Source: Planctomycetota bacterium
Lineage (GTDB): Bacteria > Planctomycetota > GCA-002687715 > DRQF01
Reading direction: 5' to 3'
DNA: 64,000 nucleotides
NCBI GenBank assembly: GCA_027001995.1
Contig: JALTLO010000202.1
Location: 1-64,000, forward strand
Part shown: piece after piece, positions 55,285 through 64,000 of the stretch
How positions within the stretch are numbered: the stretch's first letter is position 1
How the letters are laid out: the number at the start of each line of letters is the position of its first letter
The notes under the pieces: model-generated
Database searches by the model: none
Told to the model about the DNA's origin: nothing
The model's input: the letters and a program-made list of their open reading frames with translations, nothing else
Position numbers and translations under genes: made by a program

Positions 55285-55607
55285 GAGTCTTGGGTGATTC
55301 CGTTCTCTTGGGTGAGACGATTTTCTTCGTGGCAGGTGCAGGGTGTTGCCAAGCACTTGGGGCAGCCCTGGGCATACTTCTTGGCGGCCTGTTCCAGATC
55401 AACATGAGTTAAGCTGGCCAAAGTGGAGAGCCAGGCAAAAACATCTGCGAACTCTTCTTCTAAGTTAGCACGATCGTTCCCTTTGATGGCTCGGGCGAGT
55501 TCACCCACTTCTTCCACGAACCAGACGAACGTTCCGGACACGCCGCGGCTGGAGTCCTTGACGAGATAGATGTCTTCGATTCTTTTTTGAAAATCGGAAA
55601 CTTTCAT
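55281..55607 (-). CDS. MazG-like nucleotide pyrophosphohydrolase
   Basis: EEVGELA, EEFADVFAWL, C-terminal CPKC...C.C. ATGA overlaps on both sides. Confidence 0.9.
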   Translation of the reverse strand: MKVSDFQKRIEDIYLVKDSSRGVSGTFVWFVEEVGELARAIKGNDRANLEEEFADVFAWLSTLASLTHVDLEQAAKKYAQGCPKCLATPCTCHEENRLTQENGITQDS

Positions 55608-57166
55608 GCGGTACGCCTCAGGCTGATAATGGTGATGTCAAACTCGCCTGGCTCTTCTGACAAGTTTGCGTCGATTTTGGCAGCTAACTTGGATGCCACT
55701 GCAATCTCGTCTGATTTCGCCACCGCCATGGTCGCTTTGAAGAATCGGGTTTCTCCTAACTCCTCGCCACTTTTGAGTTTCAATTGAGTTAGACCTGCGG
55801 CAGAAAGTAGGAGGAGATCGTCCTTCTTCAAGATGAATTCTTCCTCCTCCAAGCTGCGGTCGAAAACCGGCCCTTTGTCCAAGCCCATGGCGATCCCTGC
55901 CGGATGGTGGTTCATGAGTTCGCTGCTTTCGGCCAGCCACCTCAGTGTTGGCATCTTGTGGCCAGCGCAAGCGATCTTGACCTCATGGGTCTGGTGATCG
56001 TAGACAGCATAGATGGCGGTCACATACATGCCTCTTCGCAGATCGGGGGAGAAAAGAGCGTTCATGCGCTTGAGAGTTGCAGCGGGACTTGAGTTCTCTG
56101 GAGCGACGGCCCGAAAAGTCGAGCGGGCCATGGCCAAGATGACCGCTGCGGGGACTCCCCGGCCACTGGCAGAAAGAAGGAGCAGGCCGGTCTTCTCACC
56201 GGGTAGATCAATGAAGTCAAAGAGGTCGCTCGAAAGATCTCCTCCGGCTTCGAATACTGCGTCGACTTGAGAATTCGGAATCTGGGGCAAGGTTGAAGGG
56301 CAGAGCTTCTCTTGGATTTCTTGGGTGATTTGCTCTTGGTGTTCCTTATCTGATAAATCCGCCTTTAGGTCTTGGGCCTCTTCCAAGCCTTGAGTCATCT
56401 CATCGATCGACTGAGCTAAGACGCCGATTTCGTCTCGCGAGTTGACCTGGCTTCGGTGGCTTAGGTTCCCTTTCGAGATGATTGCGATGTCATGGAGCAG
56501 GGTGTCTAAGGGCTTGGTCACACTCTTAGCAACAGCAAAGGAAACAAAAACTCCCACCAAGATTCCGATGATCGAAAAAAGGATGATGCTGGTGAGAAGA
56601 CTGTCCAACTCGGCTTCGAGACTTTCTTCCGAGATGAAGACCTCAACTGCTGCGATCGTCTGATTTCGATTCGTCGGCTTGACAATGGCGTGCCAGAACG
56701 AACGAACTGGAATCTCTTTGTCCCGCGAGTTCATCAGCGTACCGCGCCGAATGCGTACGGCACCGACATTCTCTAATTCTTCATTGACCCGCAGTTTGAG
56801 TTCGTTGCGCCCGGTGGCACTGATAACGAAGTCGTATTTATTCTCGCCGTTGAGTTCGTAAATGGCGACTTCTTCAACATCGTCTGTCAGCAAATCCTGC
56901 ATTCGTTTGACGTTGTCTTTGTTGTGCCAGTCGGGAGCCGCCAAGGCCTTGGCAGAGAAAAGGCCAGCTGTGTTAATCTGAGCCTCCAAGGCTTCTCTTG
57001 AAGAGCCATAGAGGGAATATCCCAGAGCCAAGAGGAGGAGAGCAATCACCACACTGATGGGAATGGCGAATTTCAGCCCGAGCCCCAGCCCACGTTTTTT
57101 CTTATGGCTGTCATCATGTGAAACTCCTGTCGTATTCTCTCGGGAGCGTGCTTTTCGCTTTGGCAT
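55604..57166 (-). CDS. Membrane HAMP + SpoIIE/PP2C-like domain protein with degenerate active site
   Basis: Two TMs, HAMP (KPL..L...DEIGVLA), QEIQ..L.P, SGRGVPAA, MYVTA.Y, ACAGH, DITII. Confidence 0.88.
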   Translation of the reverse strand: MPKRKARSRENTTGVSHDDSHKKKRGLGLGLKFAIPISVVIALLLLALGYSLYGSSREALEAQINTAGLFSAKALAAPDWHNKDNVKRMQDLLTDDVEEVAIYELNGENKYDFVISATGRNELKLRVNEELENVGAVRIRRGTLMNSRDKEIPVRSFWHAIVKPTNRNQTIAAVEVFISEESLEAELDSLLTSIILFSIIGILVGVFVSFAVAKSVTKPLDTLLHDIAIISKGNLSHRSQVNSRDEIGVLAQSIDEMTQGLEEAQDLKADLSDKEHQEQITQEIQEKLCPSTLPQIPNSQVDAVFEAGGDLSSDLFDFIDLPGEKTGLLLLSASGRGVPAAVILAMARSTFRAVAPENSSPAATLKRMNALFSPDLRRGMYVTAIYAVYDHQTHEVKIACAGHKMPTLRWLAESSELMNHHPAGIAMGLDKGPVFDRSLEEEEFILKKDDLLLLSAAGLTQLKLKSGEELGETRFFKATMAVAKSDEIAVASKLAAKIDANLSEEPGEFDITIISLRRTA

Positions 57167-57178
57167 TTTCTCTCGGCC

Positions 57179-57625
57179 CTAATTTAAGACGGACTCGATT
57201 GCCCAACTCAAGATGAGAGCTAGGATCCCTGCTAGAACATCATCATAGACCACGCCATAACCATTCGTCCACTTTTCCACTCTTCGAATTGGTCCAGGTT
57301 TCCACATGTCGAATAAACGGAAGAGGAGGAAGCCCAAAAGGAGTGTGTGGGGACCAGCGGCAAAAGGCCGCCAGATCGCGATCCACAGGCCAGCCGCTTC
57401 ATCGTAGACGAAGTCCTGAGGATCTTTTCCTCCGGTCTTGGTCATGAAACGGCGAGCCAGGGGCGGACCTGTAAGGGTGGCGAATACGGCGAGGAAACCG
57501 ATGGATGTTGAGTAGAACTCGATGGGAATGAGGTAGGCGATCAGAAGAGCCACCATGGAACCACATGTTCCGGGCATGATTGGAGAGTTTCCTGAGCCAA
57601 ACATGGTCCCAATGAATCGTACCAT
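57179..57625 (-). CDS. pgpA: Phosphatidylglycerophosphatase A
   Basis: FGSG..P.MPGT.GS, KDP..FVYDE..G, FLLFRLFD.WKP.PI, GVVYDDVLAG. Confidence 0.95.
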   Translation of the reverse strand: MVRFIGTMFGSGNSPIMPGTCGSMVALLIAYLIPIEFYSTSIGFLAVFATLTGPPLARRFMTKTGGKDPQDFVYDEAAGLWIAIWRPFAAGPHTLLLGFLLFRLFDMWKPGPIRRVEKWTNGYGVVYDDVLAGILALILSWAIESVLN

Positions 57626-57649: not shown

Positions 57650-58258
57650 TCAAATATCGTTGGCACCAATATGTCGTGAAGCTTTCACGATATAGAGGCC
57701 GCCGGAGTAAATTGTCAGAAGGACGGTGATCCAGACCAGGGCATGGGAGGAGTAGTGGATCCATCCAGGAGTTTGGGGACTTGTGGCTACGACGCCGATC
57801 AAGAAACCGATCGCCAAGCTTTGAGCGACCATCTTAATTTTGCCGGCCATTTCGGCACCAAAATCGATCCCTTGGCTTTCCATATATCCGCGAATACCAT
57901 TCACTAAGAACTCGCGAAAGAGGACAACAGCCACCATCCACGGGTGTAAATAGCTCGTGGTCTCAGGGATCGAAGCCAAGAATACCAAGCTACTGCAAAT
58001 GACAACTTTGTCTACGAATGGATCGGCGATCCTGCCAAAAGCGGTTACGGTGTTGTCCCGCCTGGCGATGTAACCGTCCAAGGCATCACTGGCTGTAGCG
58101 GCAATGAAGAAAAACAGAGCGATCCATGCAGCCTCACTTCGCCAACTATCCACCCAAAAGTCTTCTTGTATCAGCAAGAGGAAGGCGAAGGATACCATAG
58201 CGAGAAGCAGCCGGAACATGGTGACCCGGTTCGCCAAATTGAATTTGGGAATCAGCAC
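57650..58258 (-). CDS. pgsA: CDP-diacylglycerol--glycerol-3-phosphate 3-phosphatidyltransferase
   Basis: NLAN.VT.FR, DALDGYIARR...T.FG..ADP..DK, REFLV.G.R, GKIKM..Q. Confidence 0.95.
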   Translation of the reverse strand: MLIPKFNLANRVTMFRLLLAMVSFAFLLLIQEDFWVDSWRSEAAWIALFFFIAATASDALDGYIARRDNTVTAFGRIADPFVDKVVICSSLVFLASIPETTSYLHPWMVAVVLFREFLVNGIRGYMESQGIDFGAEMAGKIKMVAQSLAIGFLIGVVATSPQTPGWIHYSSHALVWITVLLTIYSGGLYIVKASRHIGANDI

Positions 58259-59586
58259 GTTCCACAGCCCTCACTCAGTTGACCGTAAAGATCGTAAGCT
58301 TCCGCTTTCTCCACCTTTACCTGGACGATATCACCAGCCTTCACCGCAGGGCCTTTGACGAAGACTTTTCCGTCGATTTCTGGGGCGTCTGACTTGCTCC
58401 TCCCAATGGATGTCTCGGAGCCTTCTCCTGGATCTTCGATCAAGACATCAATGGTTCGACCGACGAATCTTTGGTTTCTCTTCTTTGAGATTTCTTGTTG
58501 CAATGACATCAAGCGGTCTAAGCGCTCTTGTTTGAGCTCTGGTGAAACTTGGTCCGGCAAGTCGATTGCCGGGCTCCCTTCTTCTGGGGAGTACATGAAG
58601 GCCCCAAGGCGGTCAAACTGATGACGTTCAGCGAAAGAGAGTAGATGTTCGAAATCGGCGTCGGTCTCTCCGGGGAAGCCAACGATCATGGTCGTCCGGA
58701 GGGTCATATCAGGGTTCCTTGATCGTAGCTTGTCGACCATGGATTCCACGTCCTTCTCCCGAGTCTTGCGCTTCATCAGCTCCAACATGTGATTGGAGCT
58801 ATGCTGGAGTGGCACATCAATGTAAGGGAGGACTTTTCTTCCATTTGAAAGTAAAGTGGCTAGTTCGTCACTCACTTCAGTGGGGTAGGCGTAGAGCAGG
58901 CGAACCCAAGAAATCTCGTCTACTTTTTCTAAATTCTCGAGAAGTTCTACGATCCTGAAACGGCCGTAAAGGTCGACCCCATACATGGTGGAATCTTGGG
59001 CCACGACATTGATTTCTTTGGCGCCCATCTGTCCCAAACGTCGGGCTTTCTCGACCAGCTCTTCTAATGGAAAACTCTTGAGGCGACCGCGGATCTGGGG
59101 GATGACGCAGAATGTGCAGGTGTGGTTGCAGCCTTCAGCGATCTTGAGATAAGAGAAGTGGGCCGGTGTCAGTCGGGCTTGAACATAGCGCCCAGGAGTC
59201 ACGAATCCGGGGGTAGTGACTTCGGCCTGAGGCAAGTATTCATTGACATAGTCGTTGATACGATTGTAGTCAGCGAAATCTATGAGGCGGTCGACCTCGG
59301 GCACCGCTGCAATGAGCTGCTCTTTGTAGTTGCCCACCATGCATCCGGTTACGAAGAGGGCCTTGAGGCCAGACTTCTTGAGGGCGGCAGCTTCCCGAAT
59401 GGTCTGAATAGACTCTTCCCGAGCAGAGCCCAAGAAACCGCAGGTATTCACCACGACCACATCCGCCTCGGCTGGGTCGATCACGATCTCAGCATTATTA
59501 GTAATCAGATCGGAAACAAGTCCTTCTGAATCGACCAGATTCTTGGGGCACCCCAAGCTGATCAATGAGATCCTGCGGTTTCTCAA
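58252..59586 (-). CDS. rimO: Ribosomal protein S12 methylthiotransferase RimO
   Basis: SLGCPKNLVDSE, VNTCGF, YLKIAEGCNHTCTFC.IP, W.RL.Y.YP, DAPEIDG, TRAM domain. Confidence 0.97.
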   Translation of the reverse strand: MRNRRISLISLGCPKNLVDSEGLVSDLITNNAEIVIDPAEADVVVVNTCGFLGSAREESIQTIREAAALKKSGLKALFVTGCMVGNYKEQLIAAVPEVDRLIDFADYNRINDYVNEYLPQAEVTTPGFVTPGRYVQARLTPAHFSYLKIAEGCNHTCTFCVIPQIRGRLKSFPLEELVEKARRLGQMGAKEINVVAQDSTMYGVDLYGRFRIVELLENLEKVDEISWVRLLYAYPTEVSDELATLLSNGRKVLPYIDVPLQHSSNHMLELMKRKTREKDVESMVDKLRSRNPDMTLRTTMIVGFPGETDADFEHLLSFAERHQFDRLGAFMYSPEEGSPAIDLPDQVSPELKQERLDRLMSLQQEISKKRNQRFVGRTIDVLIEDPGEGSETSIGRSKSDAPEIDGKVFVKGPAVKAGDIVQVKVEKAEAYDLYGQLSEGCGTC

Positions 59587-59592
59587 CTTTGG

Positions 59593-62037
59593 CTATATCC
59601 TGCCGGCTTGCCAATCGTCATGATCGACAAGAATCTCGTGACTTCCGCTGCCTGAATAGGGTCCTACTAAACCCTCGGATTCCATGCGTTCAATAATGGC
59701 AGCGGCCTGGGCAAAGTCTACGCGCAGATTTCGTTGTAGAAAAGAGATCCGGCAAGTGTCTTGCTCAAGGCAAAGGGATACCGCCTCCTGATAGAAGGTT
59801 TCCGCTAAGGCGTCAAAAGGGGATTCTGGGGCACCAGCTTGAACCGGGGCGGGCATTTCTTCCGTCAGGGGAGCTTCGAAAGGAGCCGATTCTCCTACCG
59901 CATCAGGAGTTAGGGAACTTTCAGATTCTGAGCCAGACTCTTGGTCGCCTTCAGAAGGGCTATTGGCTATTTCTCCAATCTCCGATTTTTCCAGGGCCTT
60001 TTTCGTTTCTTCGGCTTCGATTATTCCCAGTAAATTCTCATCTTCTGGGAGGAATTCTTCGTCGAAGGGGTCGCTCTCTTCGACCTGGGCAAAAGCGTCG
60101 TCAATGGAACCTCCAGAGAATTGCTCTTCATCTTCAATGAATTCTCCAGCTTCATCCTCCCTTTTGGAAACCTGCGATTCGGCCTCCACCTTCTCAACCT
60201 CCATCACCGAGTCCTGTTTGACTTCTTCCAAGGCTGCGGGGCGAGGTGGTGCGGAGTCTTCCCCCCATGGGGCCCAATCATCATCAAGCTCCCTGACTTC
60301 CCCTTTGGTGGGGGCTGGGATGCTTGGGGTTTCGGCCGTGATCGAAGCCGGTGCCGCATAGCGAGCCAAGTCTAGGGCTGAGCTTTCTTCTTCTTCGGCG
60401 GCGGGGTCAAGAACGTCGATCTGGTCTATGGCGCCCCATTCCATGTCGTCATTTTCGTGACTAAAGAGCAGTTGTTGGAATTCGACTTCTTCTGGTTCGT
60501 CCACGAGTTCACCTTCAATGTTGTCCATTTCGTCGTCATGGAATGCTCTTGGGGGAGCGGTTTCGTAGTCAATCTCTTCTAAGTCTGATGCTTCATCATA
60601 GGCGTCGGCTTCGATGACTTTGTTTTCATAGTCTTGAACTTCGTAGACCGGATTCTCTTCTTCTTCGAAGAGTTCATCTAAGTCGGAATCCAAGAGTGCT
60701 TGGGTGTCGGGGCCAAAGCTCTCAATGTTAGAATTCGAGGCCGCGAGTTCTTCCTCTTCTTCCAGTTCTTCGAGCTCTTCGAATTCTTGCCCCAACGAGG
60801 AATCTTCTTCCTCAAGTTCGACGATGGAAGCCTCCAAATCAGTTTCATCTTCTCCATCATCATCTTCGAATTCTAACTCTTCCGTGTCTTCTTCTAAGAA
60901 GTCTTCTTCTTCGAATTCTGCAACGGCTTCCTCTTCTTCCTGTTCTGCGTTTTCATCCACAGGTTCAAGCACTTCGCCAAAGAGATCAAAGTCATTTTCT
61001 GCAGAAATCGGCTGTGACCAATCTAACTGAGGAATACCGTCATCTTCTTCTCGTTCTTCGTCTACAGCTTCCTCGTGCTGGGGCCTGCTTGTTTCGGGTT
61101 CGTCAAAAGTCAGCTCTTGATTCGTGGAATCATGGGGTTCTGCCAACTCCTGGGCTTCTCTGTCGGGGAGTTGAGTGGGGACTATGCTTTCGACCGAGTC
61201 TTTTGAAGTTGTCGCACCCACACCATCGTCCTCTCTTGGGGAGGGAGCTTCTGCGTCGATGGAAACGTCCGTGATTGCATTCTCAGTCTCCAAAGGGTCC
61301 AGGTCATCGAGAATGGTCCCATCGCTTCCCAAGGAAGAGATCGGTGTGCTGAGTTCTAAACGGCCGTCTTCTGAGTCAAGAGAAATGGGGTTGCCCAAGT
61401 CAAAAGCGGGTCTCTCCAGGGTGGTTGTTCGTCGCGATGAAGATTTGAGCTCCTGGACGTGAGTGTTTTCAGATTCCTCTGACTCTCCGCCGATGCCTAA
61501 TGCGAAAGCTGGTGCGGCGGGCTGATTGCTCAGGAGTCTGCGTACTTCCTCGAAGAAGAACCAATCTCTGGCCATGTAGGCACCAAACACCACAAGAGTC
61601 GCAGCCACAAAGTAGGCCAGTGTCTGAGGGAGTGCAAACTGGAATGCGTCACGAAGCATTTCTCCAAACTGTCCACCCCAAATAGAACCGTTTCCTTCGA
61701 TCAGAGCCACCAGGCTTGACAGGGCTAAGATTAGCAGGGGGAGCCCCACCGCCCTTCGAGGAAGATCGTTAAGAGTGTGCTTCATCCACAAAACCAATGC
61801 CATGCCACTCAGACATGCAGTGGCTAAGTAGGCTCCTAAGAGACCAAATGCCCGGGCTGGAATCAGGGCTAAATTGAGCACTGTGCTTTCGTGGGGCAAT
61901 GTCATGGCAGCGCCACCTTCCCGCAAATGGGTGGCGATCAGGAAGATCATATATGTGATGCACAGGCCAAAACCTGCCAAGGTAGTCCATTCCGATGCAG
62001 CTGCTGACTTCTTGTCGTTGTCTTCAGGGCTCGTCAT
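59593..62037 (-). CDS. FtsK-like protein lacking the ATPase motor: 4TM-like anchor + long acidic linker + FtsK gamma-like domain
   Basis: GAGGAG RBS. N-terminal TMs with FGLLGAYLA and GGQFG. No Walker A/B. C-terminal FYQEAV...ISFLQRNLRVDFAQAAAIIERMESEGLVGP aligns with the gamma domain of the adjacent FtsK. Confidence 0.85.
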   Translation of the reverse strand: MTSPEDNDKKSAAASEWTTLAGFGLCITYMIFLIATHLREGGAAMTLPHESTVLNLALIPARAFGLLGAYLATACLSGMALVLWMKHTLNDLPRRAVGLPLLILALSSLVALIEGNGSIWGGQFGEMLRDAFQFALPQTLAYFVAATLVVFGAYMARDWFFFEEVRRLLSNQPAAPAFALGIGGESEESENTHVQELKSSSRRTTTLERPAFDLGNPISLDSEDGRLELSTPISSLGSDGTILDDLDPLETENAITDVSIDAEAPSPREDDGVGATTSKDSVESIVPTQLPDREAQELAEPHDSTNQELTFDEPETSRPQHEEAVDEEREEDDGIPQLDWSQPISAENDFDLFGEVLEPVDENAEQEEEEAVAEFEEEDFLEEDTEELEFEDDDGEDETDLEASIVELEEEDSSLGQEFEELEELEEEEELAASNSNIESFGPDTQALLDSDLDELFEEEENPVYEVQDYENKVIEADAYDEASDLEEIDYETAPPRAFHDDEMDNIEGELVDEPEEVEFQQLLFSHENDDMEWGAIDQIDVLDPAAEEEESSALDLARYAAPASITAETPSIPAPTKGEVRELDDDWAPWGEDSAPPRPAALEEVKQDSVMEVEKVEAESQVSKREDEAGEFIEDEEQFSGGSIDDAFAQVEESDPFDEEFLPEDENLLGIIEAEETKKALEKSEIGEIANSPSEGDQESGSESESSLTPDAVGESAPFEAPLTEEMPAPVQAGAPESPFDALAETFYQEAVSLCLEQDTCRISFLQRNLRVDFAQAAAIIERMESEGLVGPYSGSGSHEILVDHDDWQAGRI

Positions 62038-62069
62038 GATTTAGTCTCCTCAAAACGCCTACTTCGTTA

Positions 62070-64000
62070 CTAGGCCGTCTGTTGCTTTTCCCAATCTTCC
62101 AGCGTCAACATCACTTCACGAGCTTTACTGCCTTTGAAGTTGCCAACGATGCCATCTTCAGCCATGAAATCCACTAAGCGCGCGGCTCTGGTATAGCCAA
62201 CACCTAATTTTCGCTGAAGCATGGAGACCGAACCTCTTTGGCTGGCCAAAACGGCTCGAACCGCATCATTGTAAAGGGCATCGCGATCTTGAAAACCTTC
62301 TTCCGACTTCTCTGACGAGGTCGGGACTTGGGTGAGTTCGCGACTGTATTCTGGTTGCGCCACGTCTTTGATGTAGCGCACAATGGATTTGATTTCTTCG
62401 TCACTGACCAAGGCAGCTTGACAGCGGATTGGACCACCACCAGAACGAGGAGACATGAACAACATGTCACCACGGCCCAGGAGACGTTCGGCTCCCATGG
62501 CATCAAGAATTGTCCGAGAGTCAATCTTACTGGCTGTTCTGAATGACAAACGGGAGGGCATGTTGGACTTAATGAGGCCAGTGATAACATCGACACTTGA
62601 CCGTTGAGTCGCCAAAATGACATGCACACCAACAGCCCGAGACTTCTGGGCCAAACGACAAATACTCTGCTCAACTTCCTTGGCAGAGGTCATCATCAGG
62701 TCAGCCAGCTCATCGACAATCAAAACAACATAGGGCAGATGCTTCTGCATCGTTTCTATTTCTTCGATGGTATAGTGTTCGGCCAATCGTTCTTCGACCT
62801 CTTCTTGGCCAAGGCTATTGAAGCCCTTGATGTCACGGACACCGACGGCGGAAAGAAGTTCGTAACGATGTTCCATTTCATTGACGGCCCACTCCAAGAT
62901 TTTCGGTGCCTTACGCATGTCTGTGACAACAGGTGTGAGCAGATGGGGTACGTCGCGGAAAGCTTGTAATTCGACCATCTTAGGGTCGATTAGGATGAGA
63001 CGAACTTCTTCGGGATACTTTGTCAGAAGCAGACTAGCAATAATGGTGTTGATACAGACCGATTTGCCCGCCCCGGTTTGGCCAGCGATCAGCAAATGGG
63101 GCATGGAGGTGAGATCTTCGATCAAAGCATTGCCAGAGGCATCCATGCCTAAGAGCAGAGGGATATTGAAGTGCTTTTTTTGCAGTACTTCGCTGCAGGC
63201 AAGTGTCTTCAGGAAGACCGTTTCGCGGATGTCGTTCGGTACCTCAATACCCACCGCAGCCTTCCCTGGAATGGGTGCGACGATGCGAATTGTCTTGGCT
63301 TTAAGAGCCAAAGAAATGTCATCGGGGAGGGAGGTGATTCGCTTGACCTTGGTGCCGGCTGCCAATTCAAGTTCGTAAACGGTGATGGTCGGACCACGGG
63401 ATATTTCGACCACTTGGGCGGTGATCCCAAAGGTCTCCAAAGTCTCTTCCAATTTTCGTGCTTTTCGCCGGATTTCCCCATCTCTCTCCTCCACATCCCG
63501 AACAATCGGGTCTTCAAGGAGGCTCAAAGGAGGCAAGACATAAGTTTCCTTACCTTGGAGATGTTTTTCTCGAGATAGCTTGAGGATTTCAACGCCCTCA
63601 GACGCTGTGCTCACACCTCCCCTTCGGATGATGGGATCGCTTCGTGGAGCGGGGGCGACTTCCTCATCGTCTTCCAGCCACGCGTCTTCTGGTTCTGGAG
63701 CTTCGCTGGCGTCTTCCAAAAGTAGAGATGAATCATCTTCTTCATCTAAGTCCGCGTCGAACATGAAGTCGTCTGTGGGCTCCATGATGCCTGTTTCGTC
63801 TTCTATCTCGTATTCCACCTCTTCCTCTTCTGCTTCTTCTGCGGCATCACTGAGAGCTTCCTCTTCGTCGTCCTCAGCCGCGATGTCGTCTTCTTCCTCC
63901 AGTTCCTCCAAGACGACGGCTTTCTTCTTGGCCGCTTTTTTCTTGGCAGTTTTCTTCTTGGACTTTTTCTTCTTGGATTTGGGGGTCTTGATCTCCACCC
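62070..64000 (-). CDS. ftsK: DNA translocase FtsK (5'-partial: linker, alpha/beta motor and gamma domain)
   Basis: RIVAPIPGK..VGIEVPN, MPHLLIAGQTGAGKS, IDPKMVEL, VDELADLM, LATQR, DSRTILD..GAE.LLG.GDML, SMLQRKLGVGYTRAARL. Frame is open to the window edge. Confidence 0.98.
   Translation of the reverse strand, partial: VEIKTPKSKKKKSKKKTAKKKAAKKKAVVLEELEEEDDIAAEDDEEEALSDAAEEAEEEEVEYEIEDETGIMEPTDDFMFDADLDEEDDSSLLLEDASEAPEPEDAWLEDDEEVAPAPRSDPIIRRGGVSTASEGVEILKLSREKHLQGKETYVLPPLSLLEDPIVRDVEERDGEIRRKARKLEETLETFGITAQVVEISRGPTITVYELELAAGTKVKRITSLPDDISLALKAKTIRIVAPIPGKAAVGIEVPNDIRETVFLKTLACSEVLQKKHFNIPLLLGMDASGNALIEDLTSMPHLLIAGQTGAGKSVCINTIIASLLLTKYPEEVRLILIDPKMVELQAFRDVPHLLTPVVTDMRKAPKILEWAVNEMEHRYELLSAVGVRDIKGFNSLGQEEVEERLAEHYTIEEIETMQKHLPYVVLIVDELADLMMTSAKEVEQSICRLAQKSRAVGVHVILATQRSSVDVITGLIKSNMPSRLSFRTASKIDSRTILDAMGAERLLGRGDMLFMSPRSGGGPIRCQAALVSDEEIKSIVRYIKDVAQPEYSRELTQVPTSSEKSEEGFQDRDALYNDAVRAVLASQRGSVSMLQRKLGVGYTRAARLVDFMAEDGIVGNFKGSKAREVMLTLEDWEKQQTA

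Follow-up and report, generated by a model that had tools for sequence, protein, structure and literature searches.

The ftsK-X locus

We analysed a window of 64,000 nucleotides from the genome of a Planctomycetota bacterium (G000:C202:1-64000, that is, positions 1 to 64,000 of contig JALTLO010000202.1, assembly GCA_027001995.1), near whose end a true ftsK is followed, on the minus strand, by a gene referred to here as X, which encodes a motor-less paralog of FtsK. An initial annotation of this DNA had described X as an intact 814-aa gene with its own ribosome-binding site (RBS), located 32 bp past the ftsK stop, and this description proved accurate: the ftsK gene ends at 62070 and X starts 32 bp further on. 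Only the C-terminal 642 aa of FtsK are encoded within the window. The features of the two genes are as follows:

59593-62037, minus strand: gene X, motor-less FtsK paralog, 814 aa, ATG start (open reading frame [ORF] list, Pfam, AlphaFold)
62046-62051, minus strand: GAGGAG, RBS of X, 8 nt 5' of the ATG, kept in genomes G001 and G002
61543-61989, minus strand: membrane domain of FtsK_4TM type, residues ~17-165, with four transmembrane (TM) helices and a conserved GGxxG (hydropathy, profiles, AlphaFold)
59803-61542, minus strand: acidic disordered linker, residues 166-745 (composition, AlphaFold, motor profile search)
60463-60477, minus strand: QQLLF (residues 521-525), a QxxLF motif of the clamp-binding type (pattern count, alignment, model)
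60265-60279, minus strand: DWAPW (residues 587-591), a W-x-x-W motif conserved in the class of this genome (pattern count, alignment)
59626-59799, minus strand: FtsK-gamma winged helix of X (Pfam, PDB profile and fold matches)
59698-59721, minus strand: eroded recognition segment VDFAQAAA, residues 773-780, in which the equivalents of G1294, R1297 and R1300 are lost (alignment)
62070-64000, minus strand: true ftsK (alpha, motor and gamma; Pfam), whose N-terminus lies beyond the window, the gene extending to C202:64634

The possibility that X results from misassembly was ruled out by the conservation of the locus and by junction-bridging contigs from two studies. A contig from run X1, possibly the source sample, spans 58300-62483 with 0 differences, and contigs from run X2, a separate study whose sequences are ~95% alike, bridge both the rimO-X and the X-ftsK junctions, so that the check for a misjoin proposed in the initial annotation revealed none. 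A promoter and terminator scan of the locus gave no promoter signal beyond chance.

Domain architecture of X

The N-terminal part of X contains four hydrophobic windows (residues 20-38, 65-83, 96-114 and 134-152) and scores 42.8 bits against a profile built from the FtsK N-termini of this phylum, in agreement with the FtsK-like TM helices initially proposed. Against Pfam, the FtsK_4TM domain of this copy remains under the cut-off (E-value 0.066), but it was matched at E<=5 by the N-termini of 11 of 19 X orthologs (best E-value 5.7e-14), and it exceeds the Pfam cut-off in orthologs L051, L078 and L083. The linker, announced as about 580 aa long and very acidic, indeed comprises 580 aa, with 32.4% D+E and 4.3% K+R. 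At the C-terminus, FtsK_gamma was the sole Pfam match (residues 747-804; E-value 2.9e-16; 59.4 bits for a cut-off of 30.6), as had been predicted, and FtsK gamma structures were the only Foldseek matches at E<=0.001. In the AlphaFold model, the predicted local distance difference test (pLDDT) is mostly 60-80 for the helical membrane domain, below 50 for almost all of the linker and 80-90 for the winged helix.

No motor could be detected in X. Pfam found neither FtsK_SpoIIIE nor FtsK_alpha, and a hidden Markov model (HMM) built from 69 neighbouring FtsK motors had no match in the six frames of 59591-62070 and none above 0 bits in 77 X proteins. Of the result anticipated for a Pfam search, the presence of FtsK_gamma and the absence of FtsK_SpoIIIE were thus obtained, while FtsK_4TM reached significance in orthologs only. 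A cryptic ATPase hidden in the linker was likewise rejected on the Pfam and HMM results, the few Walker-A-like strings (L104, L083 and L031) being isolated and unconserved. The linker of the true FtsK (63900-64000, minus strand) begins with a stretch rich in lysine, KKKKSKKKTAKKKAAKKK, and continues with an acidic block; X has no such charge pattern.

Distribution across Planctomycetota

We surveyed 22 genomes of the same order and a sample of 301 genomes of the phylum. At least two gamma matches were present in 19 of the 22 same-order genomes, the remaining three containing only X, only FtsK (at a contig end) and neither, respectively. In the phylum sample, 18 families stood out, with two gamma matches in 74 of their 77 genomes; among the other 224 genomes, 11 had at least two matches, and the three of these that were inspected (L053, L205 and L206) proved to contain short ORFs unlike X. 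When 70 two-match genomes were searched again, 55 yielded loci confirming X. Together with 22 proteins from the first round, these make up the set of 77 X proteins used below, which differs from the 77 sampled genomes; L203, L205, L206, an FtsK fragment on L045 and the copy of G001, whose gamma lies past an in-frame stop, were excluded before counting. X is therefore not confined to this assembly. Its homologs are labelled as metagenome-assembled genomes of Planctomycetota, Planctomycetes or Planctomycetia bacteria, and are mostly annotated as hypothetical proteins, some as FtsK-like. A scan of genome contigs for further carriers returned mostly ordinary FtsKs.

The ftsK gene lies directly upstream of X in 66 of the 77 cases, six copies being at a contig end and five apart from ftsK. 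In four of these five genomes (L197-L199, family f72, and L207, G146), X is away from ftsK yet still upstream of rimO-pgsA-pgpA. Conversely, ftsK is directly followed by rimO in L066 (G040, 85% complete), whose FtsK groups within those of X-bearing hosts, possibly reflecting a secondary loss of X. Small stand-alone ORFs encoding a degenerate gamma were also seen directly 3' of ftsK at L053:4036-4458 (G035), in a family without X, and no FtsK gamma match was found in G030 and G032, which are a 9.3-Mb single-contig genome (86% complete) and a 66%-complete genome. Finally, no ftsZ scored over the cut-off in the 56 X-bearing genomes searched, consistent with the statement of the initial annotation that Planctomycetes lack FtsZ while keeping FtsK.

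Origin and selection

In trees of the 4TM and gamma regions, X forms one side of a branch opposed to all FtsKs (FastTree support 0.957, 146 rows; IQ-TREE Shimodaira-Hasegawa-like approximate likelihood ratio test 96, 73 rows), and the family groupings within X largely mirror, and several repeat, those of the FtsK subtree. In a tree of the FtsK motors, X-bearing hosts cluster with a support of 89, with one X-less genome inside. Moreover, the gamma domain of X is equally distant from the FtsK of its own genome (32.4% identity) and from those of other genomes (32.7%). Because of this one-branch split, of the mirrored groupings and of the equal distances, the data fit a single old tandem duplication of ftsK followed by loss of the motor, although long-branch attraction may contribute to the topology; recent or repeated duplications were ruled out, since X makes up one group, at the same distance from the FtsK of its own genome as from the others. 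The initial view of X as a duplicated FtsK agrees with this single branch and with the shared 4TM and gamma layout.

X is under purifying selection: nonsynonymous divergence (dN) is 0.15 for synonymous divergence (dS) of 1.1-1.5 in the gamma part, and 0.23-0.26 for saturated dS in the TM part. Three broken copies were observed, with an in-frame TAA before gamma in G001 (L031:5945-5947) and frameshifts in G207 (L091) and G198 (L196), which may be due either to assembly error or to real decay.

Erosion of the recognition helix in the gamma domain

In Escherichia coli, a single surface of FtsK gamma binds both the FtsK-orienting polar sequences (KOPS) and XerD, with R1289-E184 as the key contact with XerD (PMC5052618, available text). 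Numbering of the X residues according to the E. coli protein was anchored on the alignment with 2j5p and on the same source. As initially noticed, the recognition helix reads VDFAQAAA in X and VGYTRAAR in the true FtsK, and this erosion of G-Y-x-R-A-x-R extends across X. The equivalents of G1294, R1297 and R1300 are present in 100% of 71 FtsKs; in the 20 X copies from the class of this genome (own-class X), G1294 is kept in one, R1297 in 10% and R1300 in 15%. The core G-Y-x-R, which reads D-F-A-Q in this X, is intact in 70 of 71 FtsKs versus 5 of 77 X.

Other positions are better conserved. Equivalents of Q1288 are kept in 95% of own-class X and 82% of the others, and R or K occupies position 1289 in 85% and 98%, respectively. 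The wing of this X does read SGSH (residues 797-800) instead of SKAR, but the loss of basic residues that this suggested cannot be a trait of the family, because the R1320 equivalent is kept in 85% of the 20 own-class X (17 of 20) and 74% of the 57 others; it is local to a few genera. At position 1282, a cysteine replaces the G or A of FtsK in the gamma domain (59626-59799) of 85% of own-class X. The five motor-less copies that retain G-Y-x-R, L051 (G024, f6), L078 (G162, f70), L074 and L089 (both f27) and L085 (f81), may still read DNA sequence and are possibly nearer to the ancestral state.

Conserved motifs in the linker

The main functional clue, absent from the initial annotation, is the conservation of two short motifs, QxxLF and DW-x-x-W, within the otherwise disordered linker. 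When 128,000 three-residue patterns were counted without bias, QxxLF came out on top (27 of 77 X linkers, in eight families, for 0.79 expected), followed by DW-x-x-W (14 of 77, own class only, for 0.2 expected); in these counts, the L196 linker includes off-frame residues. QxxLF is present in 14 of the 20 own-class X but in only 1 of 69 FtsK linkers. Its density per 10,000 residues reaches 9.6 in X linkers (31 occurrences in 32,337 residues), as compared with 1.2 in the ORFs of this genome and 0.8 in its acidic windows (3 in 38,545 positions elsewhere in the genome). The glutamine itself is enriched, being found at position -3 of 18 of 48 LF sites for a Q background of 2.2%. In 120 further homologs, all of one family type (f8) and at least one of them overlapping the first set of 77, 45 carried QxxLF and 72 Qxx[LIM]F, for shuffle means of 1.3 and 2.0. 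Among 15 full-length representatives of the own-class type, partly overlapping the first set, seven had QxxLF and 12 W[AG]xW. QxxLF is present in two separate well-supported clades of hosts (98 and 99), and the distance between the motif and gamma varies from 8 to more than 500 residues.

The second motif, in the form D-W-[AG]-x-W-[DE], is present in 18 of the 20 own-class X and in no other family. DWAPW loosely resembles the WxxW-acidic motifs of eukaryotic coat adaptors, and no packing of W-x-x-W onto gamma appears in the AlphaFold model, where this region has a pLDDT below 50. Family f27 has a linker motif of its own, LEASGIFD.

QxxLF is the general consensus for binding to the beta sliding clamp, motifs of this type having reported KD values of 0.1-80 uM (PMC12309361, available text). 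DnaE and MutS carry Qxx[LM]F in all five X-bearing genomes checked, the DnaE motifs of this clade being also non-canonical. In X, QQLLF sits in a flexible segment (pLDDT<50). A model of the DnaN of this genome with the QQLLF peptide scored 0.63, as against 0.02 for the best of three controls, with a contact agreement of at least 77% and a partner pLDDT of 51-52; the mark applied is reached by 116 of 157 solved complexes and by 2 of 215 mismatches. The peptide was placed in the expected pocket, on DnaN residues 172-177, 243, 248, 322, 346-348 and 360-369. On the basis of the motif statistics and of this model, the QxxLF found in the lineage of this genome probably binds the peptide pocket of DnaN.

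A possible role for X and its alternatives

Among the three roles put forward in the initial annotation (membrane tether, XerD modulator and FtsK regulator), the tether is the best supported. In the mechanism that we propose, X would stem from a single tandem duplication of ftsK, in the ancestor of a large branch of Planctomycetota devoid of FtsZ, and after loss of the alpha-beta motor would have been retained as a membrane-anchored adaptor made of a 4TM anchor, a long acidic disordered arm and a C-terminal gamma fold. By homology with FtsK, the 4TM domain would put X at the FtsK site of the membrane, or co-assemble with FtsK there; the acidic arm would reach into the nucleoid, where its QxxLF, in the lineage of this genome, would bind the DnaN peptide pocket; and gamma, judging from its residues, would no longer read KOPS-type sequences and would make a weak, non-specific contact with DNA or protein. 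X could in this way tether, or hand over, clamp-loaded DNA, be it the replisome or newly replicated DNA, to the FtsK membrane site, the net effect being a coupling of replication to segregation and division without FtsZ. We hold tentatively, at slightly less than an even chance, that X is such an adaptor. A bolder version, in which an ancestral FtsK split into a motor and a motor-less copy, X being the founder of a group of FtsK-derived integral-membrane sliding-clamp tethers whose arm catches the clamp so that the position of replication marks or licenses the division site, is conceivable but doubtful.

Several observations weigh against the clamp-adaptor role. QQLLF is not the canonical QL[SD]LF, Qx[SD]LF being found in only 1 of 21 order-level linkers, and the DnaN of this genome has a lysine at what we take to be the position of E. 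coli H175. Because DnaN and a clamp peptide are a textbook pair and the alignment was anchored on the motif, the model indicates likeness to solved clamp-peptide complexes, not binding. The strict motif occurs in only 27 of the 77 X, 26 of them among the 42 copies of two host clades (f1-f4; f8, f41, f72 and f85); ten families are nearly devoid of it (1 of 35; none in f24, f49, f67, f81, f33 and f34), the division into eight and ten families having been drawn after the data were seen. Clamp binding cannot, therefore, be the universal reason for the retention of X, and the claim is capped accordingly. AxxLF is also enriched in the f8-type set (41 of 120 for 7.2 expected), so that the core may be LF, recognized by another partner. 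In addition, coevolution between the erosion of the recognition helix and the gain of the motif, striking in the raw counts (26 of 42 versus 1 of 35), drew no support from independent pairs (sign test, four pairs, p = 1). Lastly, three broken copies and one with an assembly gap were found among the ~78 examined.

Other readings must be set against this one. X may act chiefly on FtsK, in a regulatory or structural capacity, with a 4TM domain that mixes into the FtsK membrane oligomer as a spacer, a brake or a divisome-recruiting subunit, the linker motifs being lineage-specific additions. Such a role would fit the presence of 4TM and gamma in all full-length copies while motifs are patchy, the frequent location of X beside ftsK, the hexamerization of FtsK N-terminal domains at mid-cell (PMC5052618) and the finding, in the available texts, that ftsK is the only essential division and cell wall (dcw) gene of P. 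limnophila (PMC12283558, PMC10632474). We nevertheless consider it unlikely, as the 4TM domain of X has strongly diverged from that of FtsK (profile scores from 94 down to <0 bits), X has moved from ftsK in five genomes, in four of which it stays with rimO-pgsA, and the retention of gamma is left unexplained. X could instead be compared with hub proteins such as HubP/FimV and PopZ, as a disordered membrane hub that uses its xxxLF and W-x-x-W motifs to recruit proteins other than the clamp. The accumulation of short motifs (W-x-x-W, AxxLF and, in f27, LEASGIFD) in a poorly conserved acidic arm would suit a hub, but the strong selection for Q at -3 of LF, as in clamp motifs, and the fit of QQLLF in the clamp pocket of the model make this quite unlikely.

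The conservation of Q1288 and R/K1289 bears on the XerD modulator of the initial annotation, that is, on X as a motor-independent activator or inhibitor of XerD at the membrane. In E. coli, R1289 is the key contact with XerD, alongside Q1288, R1292, G1294 and N1296, and a gamma peptide of nine residues is enough to activate recombination (PMC5052618); XerC- and XerD-type genes are present in five of five genomes. On the other hand, the XerD contacts G1294 and N1296 are lost in X, in FtsK the residues Q1288 and R1289 touch DNA as well, so that their retention may serve the fold or DNA contact, and four XerD-type proteins of the clade have Q, R, S or V in place of E184, their assignment to XerC or XerD being our own; this role is improbable. 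More improbable still is a replacement of RodZ, in which the winged helix of X would connect MreB to the membrane. The gene order that inspired the phrase "RodZ position" is real, since RodZ (HTH_25 and RodZ_C) comes after ftsK in four loci of the Planctomycetes-Verrucomicrobia-Chlamydiae (PVC) group, and of five X-bearing genomes all have MreB (split across two contigs in G000), none has RodZ_C and two have only weak partial HTH_25 matches. But X has no homology to RodZ (no HTH_25 or RodZ_C match at E<=1 in Pfam), has the opposite topology and lacks a periplasmic domain. Moreover, five X-less Planctomycetota outgroups have ftsK directly joined to rimO, so this position was probably vacant beforehand and the loss of RodZ does not need X; given this adjacency, tandem duplication explains the position of X, which by itself implies no replacement. 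As to a decaying duplicate or an assembly artefact, the broken copies and the fast divergence might evoke one, but the occurrence in 18 families, the single origin, a dN far below dS, the conserved RBS and the junctions bridged by two studies make it hardly credible.

Comparison with known systems

X shares with the FtsK/SpoIIIE translocases, of which it is a direct paralog, a homologous 4TM domain, a disordered linker and gamma, in the same order. It differs from them by the lack of the alpha-beta ATPase motor, by the eroded G-Y-x-R-A-x-R and by its linker, which contains QxxLF and W-x-x-W and exceeds that of FtsK two- to threefold in length (a median of 439 aa versus a mean of ~170); since the motor is the defining feature, X is not an FtsK translocase. 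Two FtsK-family genes per genome are also known in Bacillus subtilis (SftA) and Staphylococcus aureus (the FtsK/SpoIIIE pair), but these keep the motor, SftA having lost the TM part, whereas X keeps both ends and has lost the motor (PMC5357621, available text). In E. coli CrfC, a clamp-binding motif serves to position DNA, by holding sister forks together, rather than in synthesis or repair, as it would in X if the motif is real. CrfC, a dynamin-like GTPase, lacks a typical membrane-binding motif (PMC6374313, available text), whereas X is integral to the membrane and has no enzyme domain, and the two are not homologous. RodZ (HTH_25, TM and RodZ_C), which in some PVC genomes occupies the same slot between ftsK and rimO-pgsA, also combines a membrane segment with a cytoplasmic helix-turn-helix, in the opposite domain order. 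Stand-alone or tandem FtsK_gamma proteins (Atlas clusters of 75-186 aa) resemble X in having gamma without the FtsK motor. Of the best 150 of 23,370 matches to the gamma profile, 129 (within P0191-P0339) have two to four tandem gamma domains, mostly without a Walker A; only two of these 129 have at least three TM segments, the 4TM-linker-gamma layout of X is lacking, and none of those listed gave a scoring match to the N-terminal profile of X.

Genomic neighbourhood

Downstream of X, the window contains:

58252-59586, minus strand: radical SAM gene of rimO type (UPF0004, Radical_SAM and TRAM; Pfam), the usual downstream neighbour of X
57650-58258, minus strand: CDP-alcohol phosphatidyltransferase gene of pgsA type (Pfam)
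57179-57625, minus strand: pgpA (Pfam)
55604-57166, minus strand: gene for a HAMP and SpoIIE-type phosphatase, conserved in the cluster (Pfam, neighbourhood comparison)

The complete order on the minus strand is coaB-like, dut (both past the window edge), ftsK, X, rimO, pgsA, pgpA, HAMP-SpoIIE, mazG and priA, coaB and dut being the names that we presume from sequence features. The HAMP and SpoIIE-type phosphatase gene accompanies ftsK-X-rimO-pgsA-pgpA in most X-bearing families and is a possible regulator of the ftsK-X module.

Significance

No description of X was found in the full-text literature searched, a scope outside which lie supplements and most subscription journals; gene tables in papers on planctomycete genomes may list it. 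The string "ftsK" is absent from the available text of the Saltatorellota preprint (10.1101/817700). X is real, ancient and apparently undescribed; the initial annotation had called it a candidate undescribed division/segregation module. A membrane-integral clamp client coupling replication to the FtsK site would have no counterpart in the literature searched. The prediction concerning QxxLF can be checked with one peptide and one purified protein, and needs no culture. More generally, X bears on the way in which Planctomycetota achieve division in the absence of FtsZ: its fixation in 18 families makes this motor-less FtsK paralog a concrete candidate for a missing component of division or segregation.

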